A stretch of DNA of 64,000 bases. Source: Candidatus Saccharimonadales bacterium (GTDB taxonomy: Bacteria; Patescibacteriota; Saccharimonadia; Saccharimonadales; UBA4665). Below, piece after piece: positions 22,360 through 46,932 of this stretch. The notes beneath the pieces are model-generated. The model was not told the DNA's origin. It saw nothing but the letters and a program-made list of their open reading frames with translations, and did not search any database. The stretch lies in contig JBDSPW010000007.1 of NCBI GenBank assembly GCA_039930145.1, positions 22,383-86,382 on the forward strand, read 5' to 3'. Each line of letters starts with the position of its first letter. The stretch's first letter is position 1. A program made the translations under genes and the position numbers.

Positions 22360-22482
22360 GATTGGCTTCAGTATAGCAAAACCACAAGCACAATGAGAAT
22401 AGGCTTGTTTGTGAGATATGTCCGCTCAAATAGTTAATCGAAAACAAAATCATTTTGTTGTCTCAAAATATTAGAGTGTAAG

Positions 22483-32521: not shown

Positions 32522-33277
32522 CTATGCGGCCGGCGTTACCCGCTCAATAAGCGCTCTTTGTGCATATTTGCGTGCTGTGTCGGTCGCCATTACTTTCATC
32601 ACAAATTGGCCGGCGCAACGGGCCGCATTTTGGGGCAGCAGCTCTGCCCGTTTGGCGTGGCTATATGATGTATTCAATTCGGCCGCTGCTTCATAGGCGG
32701 CAATTCGTAATAGTCTGTTGCATAATTGCTCTTTATGCGTCGAATTTGTGGAATTCACCAGCTCGTCGACAATGCTTCCGGTAGTATCCACAAAGTTACG
32801 GCTCATCGTATAGTCGATTAAAAAATCTCGCACCGGAATCGGTTTATCAATCTTAATCTGTCCACTTTTCCATAGCCAGGCGCGCTGTTCTTCAGTCAGC
32901 TCAACTTGGCGCTCGCCAGATTCAGTAAAGGCCAATCCTTTGCGCGGTATGTAACCGGCTGTTGCAAAAACGACAGTCCGAAATTGCTCGTATTCTGTTT
33001 CGGGCAAGTCGGGACCTCTATATATCGAATGATATCCGGGAAATTCGTCGTGATGATGTTCGTAGTAGGCCCACTGCACGCGTGAGTTTCGTAGAGCCGT
33101 CATGCCTGCACCAGCATGCAAAAATTGCGACCGCGGATGAAAAGGATGATGCCAATCGGCAACTCTTTCACGGTTGATCTGCTTATCTTGAGGTACGGGT
33201 GGCAGCCCCTCCACTGGCATGAGTGGCAATGGTACCCCAGTGAGGATATCAACCGGAGTGGTCAGAAAACCTGGCAT
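32522..33277 (-). CDS. Hypothetical His-rich protein (ATG at 33277 preferred over the TTG at 33298)
   Basis: About 251 aa, with the motifs WHHPFHPR and YYEHHHDEFPGYH. An AAAGGA RBS-like sequence precedes the ATG. Confidence 0.5.
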   Translation of the reverse strand: MPGFLTTPVDILTGVPLPLMPVEGLPPVPQDKQINRERVADWHHPFHPRSQFLHAGAGMTALRNSRVQWAYYEHHHDEFPGYHSIYRGPDLPETEYEQFRTVVFATAGYIPRKGLAFTESGERQVELTEEQRAWLWKSGQIKIDKPIPVRDFLIDYTMSRNFVDTTGSIVDELVNSTNSTHKEQLCNRLLRIAAYEAAAELNTSYSHAKRAELLPQNAARCAGQFVMKVMATDTARKYAQRALIERVTPAA

Positions 33278-33294
33278 AGTCGATCCTTTCTTGG

Positions 33295-33337
33295 CCAACT
33301 AAAAATCCCGGGCTATTAACCCGGGATTTTTAGTTGG
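33295..33337. terminator. Perfect 18-bp inverted repeat / bidirectional terminator core (A5-TCCCGGG...CCCGGGA-T5)
   Basis: ccaactaaaaatcccggg-ctattaa-cccgggatttttagttgg. Confidence 0.7.
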
Positions 33338-33644
33338 TGCATACAATACTGCTGGCACGCACGGAATCTTGTGAATCCCTATGAACGTCCGGAGCACTCT
33401 CATATGCTTTTCCCCTTATGTTTGTTCTACGCTCATAATAAAAACCCTTACGCTTTTTGGCAAGGGTTTTATAAATCTACTTCTCTTTCGTCCTTTTGGA
33501 CTCGTCGGTACGAACACACATTCGTAGAGAAAAGGTCGAGGGAGGCTGCTGGCGATTAGATATAGATGGATTTCTAGTCTAACCGCCTAGCAGCTCACCT
33601 CTTCGGGGCTTTTGGTATCGCGCCCCGCCGACGATGTGATGAGC

Positions 33645-34481
33645 TCAGCTGAACCAGCCCGCCAGGTGCCGCTTGTAGGGCTTCTGACCCTCCTCGTCGT
33701 CCCAGCGCTGCATGAGCTCTCCCGGGAAGTTCTCCCGTGGGTGCCAGTGGACGTAGGGCTTGCCGACGACGAACGCCGGTGTCTGACCGTCGGTGCCGTC
33801 GAACTCGATGTAGCCCATGTCGGTGCCGTCACTGCGGGCGAAGGCCTTGCCCTCGAGGGAGTTGATCCTGTCGGAGAGGCGTACGAGCCGGCCGGCATTG
33901 ATCTGCTCCCAGACCGCGGCGATCCACTCGGTGTGCCTGTCGAGCTCCATCTTGAGCTGCGCCGGCAGCTGCTGGTCCTGCAGAACGAACGCGTCGAGGC
34001 CGAAGATGTTCACCTCGGTACCTGACAGCTCGAACAGGTCGAAGTCGCCGCAGAACATCACCATGGTGATGGTGTCGTTCTCGACCCAGCCGTACGGCAC
34101 ACGCTCGTTGAGCGTCACCGGCATGGGGGCCACCTGCGCGAGCATCTCGCTCATGGTCGGCGCCTCGGCCTTGTCGCCGCCGAACTCCACGACGAGGCCC
34201 TCGTCCTTCTTGACGTAGAGCTCGTAGGCCGGGAGACGATCTTCGCCCTTGAAGCCGGCGAAGCTCATCCGGTGATGACCGTCGGAGTCGTGTGCGACCT
34301 TGACGGCCAGCGGCCCTGCGTCCAGCACGAACGATGCGGTGTCGTGTCCTCCTGAACAGTGCCAGCCCTGGACGGCGTCCGGGAGCTGCTCGGCCTCGTG
34401 GAGCTTGGTGTGCACCAGCTCGTTGAATCGCTTGATGACCTGCTTGTCGGTCACTGTGTCAACAACTTGCATTGCTACCAC
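33645..34481 (-). CDS. High-GC orphan protein of unknown function (island 2)
   Basis: 278-aa ORF. The sampled line 33781-33840 is 67% G+C. A strong GGAGGTGG Shine-Dalgarno sequence precedes the ATG. Confidence 0.65.
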   Translation of the reverse strand: MVAMQVVDTVTDKQVIKRFNELVHTKLHEAEQLPDAVQGWHCSGGHDTASFVLDAGPLAVKVAHDSDGHHRMSFAGFKGEDRLPAYELYVKKDEGLVVEFGGDKAEAPTMSEMLAQVAPMPVTLNERVPYGWVENDTITMVMFCGDFDLFELSGTEVNIFGLDAFVLQDQQLPAQLKMELDRHTEWIAAVWEQINAGRLVRLSDRINSLEGKAFARSDGTDMGYIEFDGTDGQTPAFVVGKPYVHWHPRENFPGELMQRWDDEEGQKPYKRHLAGWFS

Positions 34482-34548
34482 CTCCGTGGTATCAAAAAAA
34501 GATAGCCGTAGCTACCCTCTATCATCGCGCTTTGCGACAATGGTAACT

Positions 34549-34576
34549 ATTTTATACTCATAGCTTTGTTTGTCAA
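34549..34576 (-). promoter_or_regulatory. Sigma70-like promoter (TTGACA, 16-nt spacer, TAAAAT) driving the island-2 ORF
   Basis: On the minus strand TTGACA is at 34576-34571, directly after the ftsK stop, and TAAAAT is at 34554-34549. Confidence 0.5.
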
Positions 34577-36775
34577 TTATACGTTGGCGAATTCGTCGTC
34601 TTCGGCGGGTTGCTCGCCAGGTGTTCCGGCGTTGCCGAAGACTTCATCGAGGCTGCTTACAAGCACTTCACGCGGGCGGGAGCCATCGGCGTGGCCCACA
34701 ATGCCCTGTTCTTCCATTTGCTCAATAAGGCGGGCTGCACGGCCGTAACCAATGCGCAGGCGACGCTGCAACAGCGAGGTCGAGGCTTTGCGGCCTTCGA
34801 TAACCACGCGCACAGCATCCTGCCACATATCATCATCGCCATCGCCACCAGGGCCCATATCGGCCACGATGCCGCCCTTACCGTTAAGCACAACTGGTTG
34901 GCTGACCACTTCGTCATCATAGGCTGGTGGGCGTTGCATACGGATAAAGTCCATGACTTTGGCAGTCTCGGCGTCTTCAATAAGTGCTGCCTGGACACGC
35001 TTAGGCTTGGGCATATCAGATGTCAGGAGTAGCATGTCACCACGACCCAGGAGCTTTTCGGCACCCATCTGGTCGATAATCGTGCGACTGTCGACTTGGC
35101 TGGCCACTGTAAAGGCGATACGAGCCGGTACGTTAGCCTTAATAAGGCCGGTAATAACGTCAACAGACGGGCGCTGCGTTGCCAGTACCAGGTGGATACC
35201 AGCGGCACGAGCTTTTTGTGCCAGGCGAACAATCAGAGCTTCGACGTCGCGGGCGGCCATCATCATCAGGTCAGCCAGCTCGTCGATAACAATCACGATG
35301 TATGGCATGCCCTCTTCTTTTTTGGCAGCATTATAACTGGCAATGTCACGCGTACCGATTTCTGCCATGGTGCGCAATCGGCGCTCCATCTCGGCCACGG
35401 CCCACTTTAGTGCACTAATACACTTCTCTGGTTCATTAATAACGGGCGTTAACAGGTGTGGAATGTCGGCATATGGTGCCATTTCAACTTGTTTTGGGTC
35501 AACCAATATCAGCTTCAGGTCGCTCGGGCTATTGCGATAGAGCAAGCTGGTCAAGAACGTGTTGATCATAACGGACTTACCGGAGCCGGTTTGACCAGCG
35601 ACGAGCATGTGCGGCATCTTCGATAGGTCGGCAACAATTGGCTGTCCAGAAATATCTTTACCGATTACAAAACCAAGCGGGCCTTTAACGGCTGCCCACT
35701 CGCGTGATTGCAGCAGCGAGCTAACACGCACGACAGCTGGTTTGATGTTCGGCACTTCGATACCCACCGCGCGTTTACCGGGGATGGGCGCTTCCATACG
35801 AATAGAATGTGCGGCCAGGTCGAGCGCCAGGTTATTCTCGAGAGCGGTAATTTTAGTGAGTTTTACCCCTGTTGGTGGCTTCATAGTAAACTGTGTCACC
35901 CGCGGGCCGATGTTGGCACCTTCCATCTCGACATCGATGCTAAAGTTGGCAAACGTGTCGTGAATAATCGCGGCATTGCCTTCGACATCGCCGGCGTCAG
36001 CCTTGTCTTGTTTTTGATTCAGAAGATCGACTGAGGGTAGCTGCCAATTTGGATCGCTAGCCAGTGTTAGTGCTTCGTGATTTTCGGTGCCGGTGAGCTT
36101 TTGAGCGCTATTCTTCATGGAACTCAGACGTGCATTCTCGCGGGCACTGTGGTGCTCAACGGGCACGCCCTCGTTCATCTTAAAGCCTTCGCTGGCCCGC
36201 GCTTTGAGGGTAGCCAGGTCACCGATTTCGCCGTCGACCTCTTCGCGTTGAAAGATGTTGAATAGATTAAGAATAACTTTGAGGGAAATACCAAGCGCAA
36301 AGAACAGCGACAAGGCTGTAAGCACAAAGAATAATATGCCGGCTGGTACGGTATCGAGAGCACTGAGCACCATGCCGCCAACGATTTTTCCGGCTGCCCC
36401 ACCATGACCGCCAGCCCAGGAGCCGCCGCCATCGCGTTGCGCAAAGGTGACAAATAGCCAACCAGCTGAAAAGAGCAGCACACAGAAGACACTCACGAGT
36501 TTGCCAAGGGGCAATTTACGTTCTTCGCTCATAAATTTATTGATACCCCAGTAAGCGAGCGCAAAAGGAGTAATATATGCTGCCCAGCCGAAAACGGCAT
36601 AAGCACCCTTAAAGAGGTTTACGGGCAAAGGGCCGCCAGTACCGAAGCCACCCAGCAGTACAAAGAGGGCCGTTAAGCACAATAGTATGCCACCGGCGTG
36701 GCCCCAGAACGGTGAACGCTCCACTACTGGCTCTGGTGCTGCTTTTCTTTTTCTAGTTTGTTTCTTTTTTGCCAT
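34577..36775 (-). CDS. ftsK: DNA translocase FtsK/SpoIIIE
   Basis: N-terminal TM helices, the motor-domain Walker A LVAGQTGSGKSV, and a C-terminal gamma (winged-helix) domain. Confidence 0.93.
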   Translation of the reverse strand: MAKKKQTRKRKAAPEPVVERSPFWGHAGGILLCLTALFVLLGGFGTGGPLPVNLFKGAYAVFGWAAYITPFALAYWGINKFMSEERKLPLGKLVSVFCVLLFSAGWLFVTFAQRDGGGSWAGGHGGAAGKIVGGMVLSALDTVPAGILFFVLTALSLFFALGISLKVILNLFNIFQREEVDGEIGDLATLKARASEGFKMNEGVPVEHHSARENARLSSMKNSAQKLTGTENHEALTLASDPNWQLPSVDLLNQKQDKADAGDVEGNAAIIHDTFANFSIDVEMEGANIGPRVTQFTMKPPTGVKLTKITALENNLALDLAAHSIRMEAPIPGKRAVGIEVPNIKPAVVRVSSLLQSREWAAVKGPLGFVIGKDISGQPIVADLSKMPHMLVAGQTGSGKSVMINTFLTSLLYRNSPSDLKLILVDPKQVEMAPYADIPHLLTPVINEPEKCISALKWAVAEMERRLRTMAEIGTRDIASYNAAKKEEGMPYIVIVIDELADLMMMAARDVEALIVRLAQKARAAGIHLVLATQRPSVDVITGLIKANVPARIAFTVASQVDSRTIIDQMGAEKLLGRGDMLLLTSDMPKPKRVQAALIEDAETAKVMDFIRMQRPPAYDDEVVSQPVVLNGKGGIVADMGPGGDGDDDMWQDAVRVVIEGRKASTSLLQRRLRIGYGRAARLIEQMEEQGIVGHADGSRPREVLVSSLDEVFGNAGTPGEQPAEDDEFANV

Positions 36776-46846: not shown

Positions 46847-46932
46847 CTGTATCAGTATACCGTTTTCGCTGTTCCCAGCTCGTCAGTACGACGTTTTTAA
46901 GTAGTCGTAGAACGGGTTAAGACAAAGAGAGT

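Follow-up and report, generated by a model that had tools for sequence, protein, structure and literature searches.

A GC3-rich orphan gene of a Saccharimonadales bacterium as probable cargo of a multi-copy expression cassette with a hammerhead ribozyme motif

Hammerhead ribozymes flanking single non-conserved open reading frames (ORFs) are known in bacteria and prophages, and their role is open (PMC3088659; PMC6155905). A comparable arrangement was found in the window, i.e., the whole 64,000-nt stretch analyzed here (positions 22,383 to 86,382 of contig JBDSPW010000007.1, assembly GCA_039930145.1, Candidatus Saccharimonadales bacterium), where a ribozyme motif lay behind a GC-rich minus-strand ORF (33645-34472; the cargo ORF) downstream of ftsK. 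A preliminary description, made from the sequence alone, had regarded this ORF as a horizontally acquired gene from a high-GC donor, captured behind a native promoter. The cargo ORF is probably the load of a self-contained, multi-copy Saccharimonadales expression cassette (33437-34576, minus strand), not a fresh high-GC import. The cassette displayed the order sigma-70 promoter, two-hairpin leader, strong Shine-Dalgarno (SD) sequence, ORF rich in G+C at third codon positions (GC3), small hairpin, long hairpin, hammerhead, and terminator. A related genome carried the same cargo family and RNA frame at another locus, and sequence conservation places the ends of the unit at the predicted transcript start and the hammerhead 3′ end.

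The cassette resembled the prophage hammerheads in two respects: (i) an intergenic three-stem ribozyme directly behind a small or orphan gene and (ii) the occurrence of several copies per genome, sometimes clustered, processing of single-gene mRNAs being the role proposed for the prophage copies (Perreault et al. 2011, PMC3088659; de la Pena et al. 2017, PMC6155905). The window copy was directly adjacent to a non-conserved ORF but, unlike those copies, was not near integrase or prophage genes (PMC3088659). Relative to the accessible parts of the prophage accounts, the cassette was set apart by its own promoter, a conserved folded leader, a long hairpin before the cleavage site, and a persistent synonymous GC excess. 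Full-text literature searches returned no paper tying hammerheads to Saccharibacteria or the candidate phyla radiation (CPR), and the cassette frame with its persistent synonymous GC excess is undescribed. Integron gene cassettes, each composed of an ORF plus an attC hairpin, shared with the present unit a single-ORF, mostly orphan cargo and a long imperfect hairpin, as well as same-strand arrays in some relatives; the present unit differed in having its own promoter and leader, in showing no integrase, and in carrying a ribozyme after the hairpin.

The composition of the cargo ORF was compared with that of the whole assembly (894,066 bp, 41 contigs, GC 0.497, 98% complete). An ORF was present at 33645-34481 as first described, and its likelier start was the ATG at 34472 (275 aa plus stop), which was common to all homologues in the alignment; the SD sequence GGAGGTGG (34478-34485, minus strand) stood 5 nt ahead of this ATG, in agreement with the strong ribosome-binding site that had been proposed. 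The claimed GC richness was likewise borne out: the ORF had a GC content of 0.64 (0.67, 0.37, and 0.885 at the first, second, and third codon positions, respectively), no other of the 863 genomic ORFs with 100 aa or more reached its GC3, which lay about 5.3 sd above the mean of 0.527 (sd 0.067), and the stretch 33781-33840 was 66.7% G+C. The third-position bases were C 0.51, G 0.38, A 0.06, and T 0.05. The amino-acid sets GARP (0.255) and FYMINK (0.211) both deviated by no more than one sd from the genome means (0.26 ± 0.03 and 0.247 ± 0.04, respectively), and the untranslated regions (UTRs) of the cassette had GC contents of 0.41 (leader) and 0.52 (tail). Only synonymous sites carry the GC excess, while GC2, amino-acid composition, and both UTRs are native-like; a donor-like composition at all codon positions and in amino-acid usage was not found, and the third position alone deviated.

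The cassette promoter (34549-34576, minus strand) was composed of −35 TTGACA (34576-34571), a 16-nt spacer, and an extended −10 TATAAAAT (34556-34549), and it began directly at the ftsK stop, AACGTATAA being immediately followed by TTGACA. These hexamers and their abutment on ftsK, both already pointed out in the preliminary description, were recovered by promoter scan and in the sequence: TTGACA-N16-TAAAAT fitted 11 of the 12 consensus positions, and two promoter-like sites were present in the region against 0.2 expected from shuffles. The idea of a captured native promoter did not survive the comparison, in which equally spaced promoter hexamers (without conservation of the spacer sequence), leader, and ribosome-binding site went with the gene both at other loci and in homologues with as little as 38% identity; promoter and leader recurred with homologues at unrelated loci, and the promoter therefore belongs to the cassette. 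Between the window and loci L002 and L003, the leader from hairpin P1 to the SD was 90-93% identical, the tail 75-86%, and the ORF 76-81% (third positions 65-72%), while the DNA upstream of −35 was only 45-50% identical, i.e., about random.

The leader contained two hairpins. P1 (34521-34541, minus strand; AUUGUCGC-AAAGC-GCGAUGAU) lies at or near the predicted transcript 5′ end, and a P1-type hairpin was kept in nearly all folded homologues with its outer pairs changed on both sides (GUUGCAA/UUGCAAC in L016, GACUGCA/UGCGGUU in L017, and GCUGCA/UGCAGU in L041). Leader hairpin 2 (34494-34520, minus strand) had a purine-rich SD-like 5′ strand and a UACG tetraloop followed by U7, and compensatory changes and a U-run were found in all nine leaders folded; judged by its sequence, it looks like a terminator/attenuator or an SD mimic paired with an anti-SD strand.

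The contexts of the homologues bear directly on a recent transfer from a high-GC donor (e.g., the actinobacterial host) behind a pre-existing local promoter, with composition not yet ameliorated. Such a transfer would fit a GC3 of 0.885 in a slot empty in relatives, and one distant family member, P0020 (E 3e-16; L022:309-4188), was indeed found on a contig of 70% GC, with DUF6907, an integrase of phage type, and a Mu-type transposase (rve plus Mu-transpos_C) next to it; this was the only high-GC context found and had no hammerhead. The remaining 13 of 14 homologue contexts were mid/low-GC, those with enough flanking genes being Patescibacteria (CPR)-like, so the closest homologues were not in high-GC taxa; one family member was named Candidatus Saccharibacteria. 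Loci L001/L002 harbored a 76% identical homologue in the same synteny as in the window, while L003 (GCA_027426575.1) harbored a 73% identical one between different neighbors. These 73-76% identical genes had GC3 of 0.87 and 0.86 against backgrounds of about 0.5 (genomes of about 50% GC), more distant members had GC3 of 0.68-0.83 in mid/low-GC contexts, and the GC3 excess was repeated in 10 of 13 mid/low-GC homologue contexts.

Synonymous divergence (NG86 dS) was about 0.5 among the three closest cargo genes versus >1.2 or saturated in flanking genes. A recent transfer, first suggested by this value, was rejected: the observed identity of codons for the same amino acid was 0.71-0.77, and 0.68 is expected at saturation under the cargo codon usage; the low dS is an artefact caused by codon bias. 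Synonymous sites have been largely turned over, yet GC3 stands at 0.86-0.89 in three lineages, and the bias is therefore maintained rather than inherited and fading. With its GC2 of 0.37 and amino-acid composition matching the resident genome, its UTRs of 41-52% GC, a promoter and leader that travel with the gene, and no match beyond the window's own genome in contig, phage, plasmid, or IMG/VR searches, the cargo ORF makes an un-ameliorated high-GC import highly improbable. The preliminary description had itself named, as the finding that would speak against its donor, homologues restricted to Patescibacteria and all GC-anomalous; the contexts nearly correspond to this (13 of 14 mid/low-GC, 10 of these 13 with the GC3 excess), and the donor reading is close to refuted on these terms. 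As in genomic islands from high-GC donors, GC rises abruptly at this locus, only one accessory gene is involved, and the site is empty in relatives; the present anomaly differs in affecting third positions only, with native amino acids and native flanking regulatory RNA, in being stable over saturating divergence, and in having homologues mostly in the same bacterial group.

GC3 was further related to the ribozyme frame. Within the cargo family, members with a hammerhead had GC3 of 0.68-0.89 (n = 8) versus 0.49-0.75 (n = 5) in those without (Mann-Whitney p = 0.003), and among unrelated cargos in relatives, hammerhead-capped ORFs had a median GC3 of 0.70 (n = 31) versus 0.52 in other same-locus ORFs (n = 105; p = 1e-7) at a GC2 of 0.43 versus 0.42, all these p-values being overstated owing to related sequences and crude ORF calls. 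Family members with a long hairpin plus U-run had GC3 of 0.75 and 0.61, and those with a plain promoter and a plain terminator had 0.49-0.55. The GC excess tracks the ribozyme frame both within the cargo family and across unrelated cargos. Two candidate causes were rejected: (i) codon adaptation to high expression, given that the ribosomal-protein operon had GC3 of 0.43-0.57 and preferred GAA, and (ii) dependence on foreign tRNAs, given that C34 or G34 species among the 40 tRNAs of the genome fit most of the preferred codons. Folding of the ORF relative to synonymous shuffles gave z of −1.5 to −2.3 in four homologues, a weak signal that points only faintly to mRNA-level selection on cargo GC3. 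The main alternative to such selection is GC-biased gene conversion upon exchange of cassettes: cassettes change loci, and two ribozyme copies of this same genome, at contig ends, had near-identical 5′ halves. Conversion should enrich unconstrained non-coding parts (spacer and loops) in GC as well, and the leader was 41% GC.

Three conserved RNA elements were recognized behind the cargo stop codon. The first was the small GC-rich hairpin CGGGGC-N12-GCCCCG (33604-33627, minus strand), nearly invariant in L001 and L003 and with equivalents in L004, L016, L017, and L021; it was present where it had first been noticed, and, having a 12-nt loop and no U-run, it is not a terminator by itself. The second was a 64-nt long imperfect hairpin (33538-33601, minus strand), which paired an SD-like GAGGUGAG with a CCUCCCUC strand, and whose apical part was swapped for compensating sequence in L003, L004, and L017. 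In eight cassettes, folding energies of −44 to −54 kcal/mol were obtained for the tail from stop codon to hammerhead, long hairpin included. The third was the hammerhead, separated from the cargo stop codon by 109 nt, and directly after it came an intrinsic-terminator-like hairpin with a U-run (33437-33470, minus strand; AAAACCCUU-N12-AAGGGUUUUUAUU), with analogous hairpins with U/A-rich flanks after the ribozymes of L016 and L003. Leader hairpin 2 with its U-run, the long hairpin, and the hammerhead with the terminator behind it were all absent from the preliminary description.

The window ribozyme was a type III hammerhead (33478-33535, minus strand) with stem III CUUUUCU/AGAGAAG, stem I UACGAA/UUCGUA, and stem II GUCC/GGAC. 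A custom model, R1, built from nine copies aligned to the type III structure, scored it at 75 bits (E 2e-18). In the nine-copy alignment, 95.4% of the cells of 17 pairs were paired, 13 of the 17 pairs were changed on both sides, none of 500 shuffles was as good, and slid controls paired only 31-48%; the type III three-way junction, with stems I and II loop-closed and stem III open, was backed by this covariation. Positions U16.1 and A15.1 were invariant in all copies, and N17 was C in the window and C, U, or A elsewhere. The conserved core C3-U4-G5-A6-N7-G8-A9 plus G12-A13-A14 was not intact in the window copy, which read CCGACGA...GAAA, i.e., with C at U4, and would be cleaved after C17 (33527). 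Relative to Rfam RF00008 (Hammerhead_3), it shared the type III topology, the C-U/C-G-A-N-G-A...G-A-A-A core, A15.1-U16.1, and cleavage predicted after C17; it differed in U4 = C and in that both it and the best copy of this genome (34.3 bits) scored below the gathering score, an own subfamily model (R1) being needed. The copy behind the L017 homologue reached 43.5 bits.

Hammerheads at about 100-135 nt behind the last ORF were found in the homologue-carrying cassettes of L001, L003, L004, L016, L017, L021, and L041; canonical CUGAUGAG...CGAAA motifs about 100-135 nt past the last stop codon were seen by eye in L003, L004, L016, and L017. This genome contained six R1 copies, each 96-166 nt behind an ORF with GC3 of 0.70-0.89 and GC2 of 0.34-0.48. 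R1 copies were further found in 29 of 61 Saccharimonadales genomes; a genome had as many as 29 of them, and same-strand arrays were spaced at 1-2.5 kb. Of 150 other genomes in the phylum, 18 had copies, mostly single ones. Capped genes formed arrays in G003, G010, and G049.

Individual copies showed the following features. A second hammerhead within the window (46856-46918, minus strand; R1 61.5 bits, core CUGACGA) was located just upstream of truB, 96 nt behind a 95-aa ORF with GC3 of 0.71, at the distal end of another putative high-GC island of the preliminary description (its island 3). Four further copies were located elsewhere in this genome (G000): C23:11772-11840(+), C19:59503-59648(-), C23:5086-5142(-), and C21:951-1010(-), of which two, at or near contig ends, were near-identical over their 5′ halves and about 25 nt of preceding sequence; the C21 copy had the core CCGACGA, as in the window copy, and intact stems. 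The hammerheads L001:1087-1210 and C19:59503-59648, from different genomes, each had a stem II insertion of about 85-90 nt, composed alike of a long perfect hairpin and then CCGA(A/G)CGAUGA(C/U)GCUC; from their sequences, these insertions may represent a further structured RNA module lodged within the ribozyme. The 1.2-Mb relative G003 carried 29 hammerheads, six of them on one strand within 13 kb (L041, equal to G003:C6:24500-39500), in an array of capped, mostly orphan, GC3-rich genes that included a distant cargo-family member (L041:990-1766; hhalign 97.6%). On metagenome contig L004, a group I intron (1376-1619; Rfam 84.5 bits) split a tRNA anticodon loop just downstream of the cassette; it lay in this adjoining tRNA gene and was rejected as a cassette component.

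The reading of a maintained, hammerhead-capped cassette has several points to its disadvantage. U4C occurred just once among the 52 aligned copies and again in the C21 copy of the same genome, while the CUGANGA core was present in 49 of 52 and the L003 copy behind the orthologous gene was canonical. Core changes usually lower hammerhead activity (PMC3088659), and cleavage at the window copy is therefore uncertain, maybe slow or dead; its RF00008 match (33486-33528) had 22.9 bits (E 0.076), below the gathering score of 48.5. A simple terminator scan flagged neither leader hairpin 2 nor the final terminator (33437-33470), the latter being missed because loops of >8 nt were not flagged; as the scan of 33200-34700 reported nothing despite visible hairpins with U-runs at 33437-33470 and 33301-33331, its negatives do not equal absence. 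The same side of the balance also bears the weak ORF folding signal, the overstated p-values, and the family member on the 70% GC contig, which shows that exchange with a high-GC organism does occur.

These points partly favor a reading in which the frame is real, the window hammerhead is an inactive U4C relic, the mRNA ends at the downstream terminator, and GC3 is due to GC-biased gene conversion at recombination hot spots rather than to mRNA-level selection. It would accommodate the rarity of U4C, the terminator-like hairpin and U-run after the ribozyme, and family members L018 and L061, which had a long hairpin with U-run and no hammerhead. On the other hand, the three stems, GAAA, A15.1-U16.1, and C17 were all intact in the window copy, and the C21 copy with the same CCGACGA core and intact stems would be unexpected under random decay. 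The relic reading is possible but unlikely on this evidence; the sequence supports a genuine type III hammerhead context, with the activity of the window copy uncertain.

Under the cassette reading, transcription would start from the cassette promoter and the primary transcript would run to the terminator; the hammerhead would cut after C17 (33527), dropping the terminator tail, and the resulting mRNA would end in the long hairpin (33538-33601) with a 2′,3′-cyclic phosphate. The 3′ end of the message would thereby be set independently of the insertion site. The leader hairpin with its U-run and the duplexes between SD-like and anti-SD strands may tune read-through or translation, and the GC3-rich 'codon dialect' would be actively maintained, by mRNA-level selection or GC-biased gene conversion, and not inherited from a donor.

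Two long-range folds of the transcript were tried without success. A viroid- or Obelisk-like rod fold of the 1.08-kb transcript was unsupported, the minimum free energy and centroid structures being mostly local helices. A leader-tail clamp was negative in both duplexfold and longest-complement counts (cognate mean 6.6 versus non-cognate 6.7 nt; window 5 nt). Pairing of 5′ and 3′ UTRs reportedly occurs in bacterial mRNAs of the icaR type; the cassette is similar in that its 3′ tail holds a CCUCC-type anti-SD strand able to pair with the SD, and it differs in showing generic SD/anti-SD complementarity only, with no cognate-specific excess.

The locus was further compared with its counterparts in relatives. 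The gene order RNase J, FtsK, variable slot, S6, and SSB was kept across the order. In six family-level relatives, FtsK preceded the orthologue of the 32522-33298 gene, with nothing matching the target between, at a gap of 170-460 nt in five and about 940 nt in G003; in other relatives, S6 came directly after FtsK, and FtsK was joined to the orthologue of this 258-aa gene or to S6 in 15 relatives altogether, which confirms the empty site that the preliminary description had proposed to look for. The cargo gene is an accessory insertion, its slot being empty or otherwise filled in relatives, and the ftsK-S6 slot is a hot spot for variable genes. In the same-genus genome G001 (L023:6403-7389), the slot was occupied by another ORF, of 328 aa and with an RNase II/R-like SPLRRLDD motif. 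The neighbors in the window were ftsK, the orphan gene 32522-33298, rpsF-ssb-rpsR (S6-SSB-S18), and efp; no integrase or phage gene was present around the locus, and no repeats, integrase, or target-site pattern were seen at the cassette junctions. The His-rich 258-aa neighbor (32522-33298, minus strand) was fast-evolving, with 34% identity to its syntenic L001 counterpart, while ftsK, S6, SSB, and EF-P were 77-91% identical over the same comparison.

A phage- or satellite-derived 'moron', left by or exchanged through Saccharibacteria phages, was weighed against this neighborhood. Bacterial hammerheads are typically found close to integrases or prophages, where they flank single variable genes (PMC3088659; PMC6155905), and the arrays of capped genes in the three relatives would suit such an origin. 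Nine of ten capped cargos tested had no Pfam family, one was an SPFH/Band 7 protein (in L050), and two others were ThiF/E1-like (PF00899; L047:5183-5854(-) and L050:1417-2100(-), each about 430 nt upstream of a hammerhead). ThiF/E1-like and SPFH families also occur in defence or phage contexts, which again agrees with a moron. Against it stand the immediate neighbors (ftsK, a fast-evolving orphan, and the S6-SSB-S18 operon), the lack of any match of the cargo in 50,697 phage records, IMG/VR, and PHROGs, and the ORFs tested in or beside arrays, 8 of 10 of which had no Pfam match and none of which matched a phage structural or replication family. A moron origin is improbable on balance.

The cargo protein was finally characterized within its unnamed family of about 260-275 aa. 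It gave no match in Pfam, PHROGs, NCBIfam, or PADLOC, a PDB profile search returned noise only, and these family and structure searches thus accord with the absence of any recognizable motif reported at first. A word-indexed search of 5.8 billion proteins found four relatives, and an exhaustive HMMER scan of 1.84 billion representatives found 42 clusters at E<=1e-3, nearly all of 256-286 aa. Neither 60 relatives nor 400 additional genomes of the phylum yielded the protein; tblastn searches of phages and plasmids gave nothing, and neither did related-locus searches in genome, metagenome, and viral contig sets, the genome set possibly leaving out the records of the window's own genome. G194, R202, P232, and Y240 were invariant in the family alignment, and dN/dS was about 0.3 among the three closest cargo genes. 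An AlphaFold2 model from a 23-sequence alignment had a pLDDT of 93.5 and a pTM of 0.89, and Foldseek with this model found nothing at E<=1e-3 in PDB or BFVD. The C-terminal half modelled alone reached a pLDDT of only 62; as this half folds poorly by itself, the protein is probably one integrated fold. It was acidic by sequence count (45 D+E versus 25 K+R) and had no signal peptide, and it is probably cytoplasmic; a role in conflict, or an accessory one, that varies between strains may be proposed with low confidence, the preliminary description having suggested host interaction or immunity. The family folds confidently and has no known relatives, and its members are among the many orphan proteins in such cassettes.

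For annotators, a 'high-GC island' in Saccharibacteria is not by itself evidence of import from a high-GC host. A far-reaching and quite improbable possibility is that hammerhead-capped cassettes form a separate class of Saccharibacteria mRNAs in which the codon dialect, the terminal hairpins, and the cyclic-phosphate end make up one adaptive package. If so, the messages might outlast an AU-directed ribonuclease or stress shut-off; more radically, messages or genes might be adapted to work in the high-GC actinobacterial host or to be exchanged with it, and the cassette may be a new mobile unit bounded by promoter and ribozyme. The biological role of bacterial hammerheads is a long-standing open question (PMC6155905), and Saccharibacteria are now genetically tractable (PMC10633639). 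In the cassettes described here, the ribozyme appears as a fixed part of a repeated gene frame, coupled to a synonymous GC excess that does not decay, and this coupling makes the question of its role testable.

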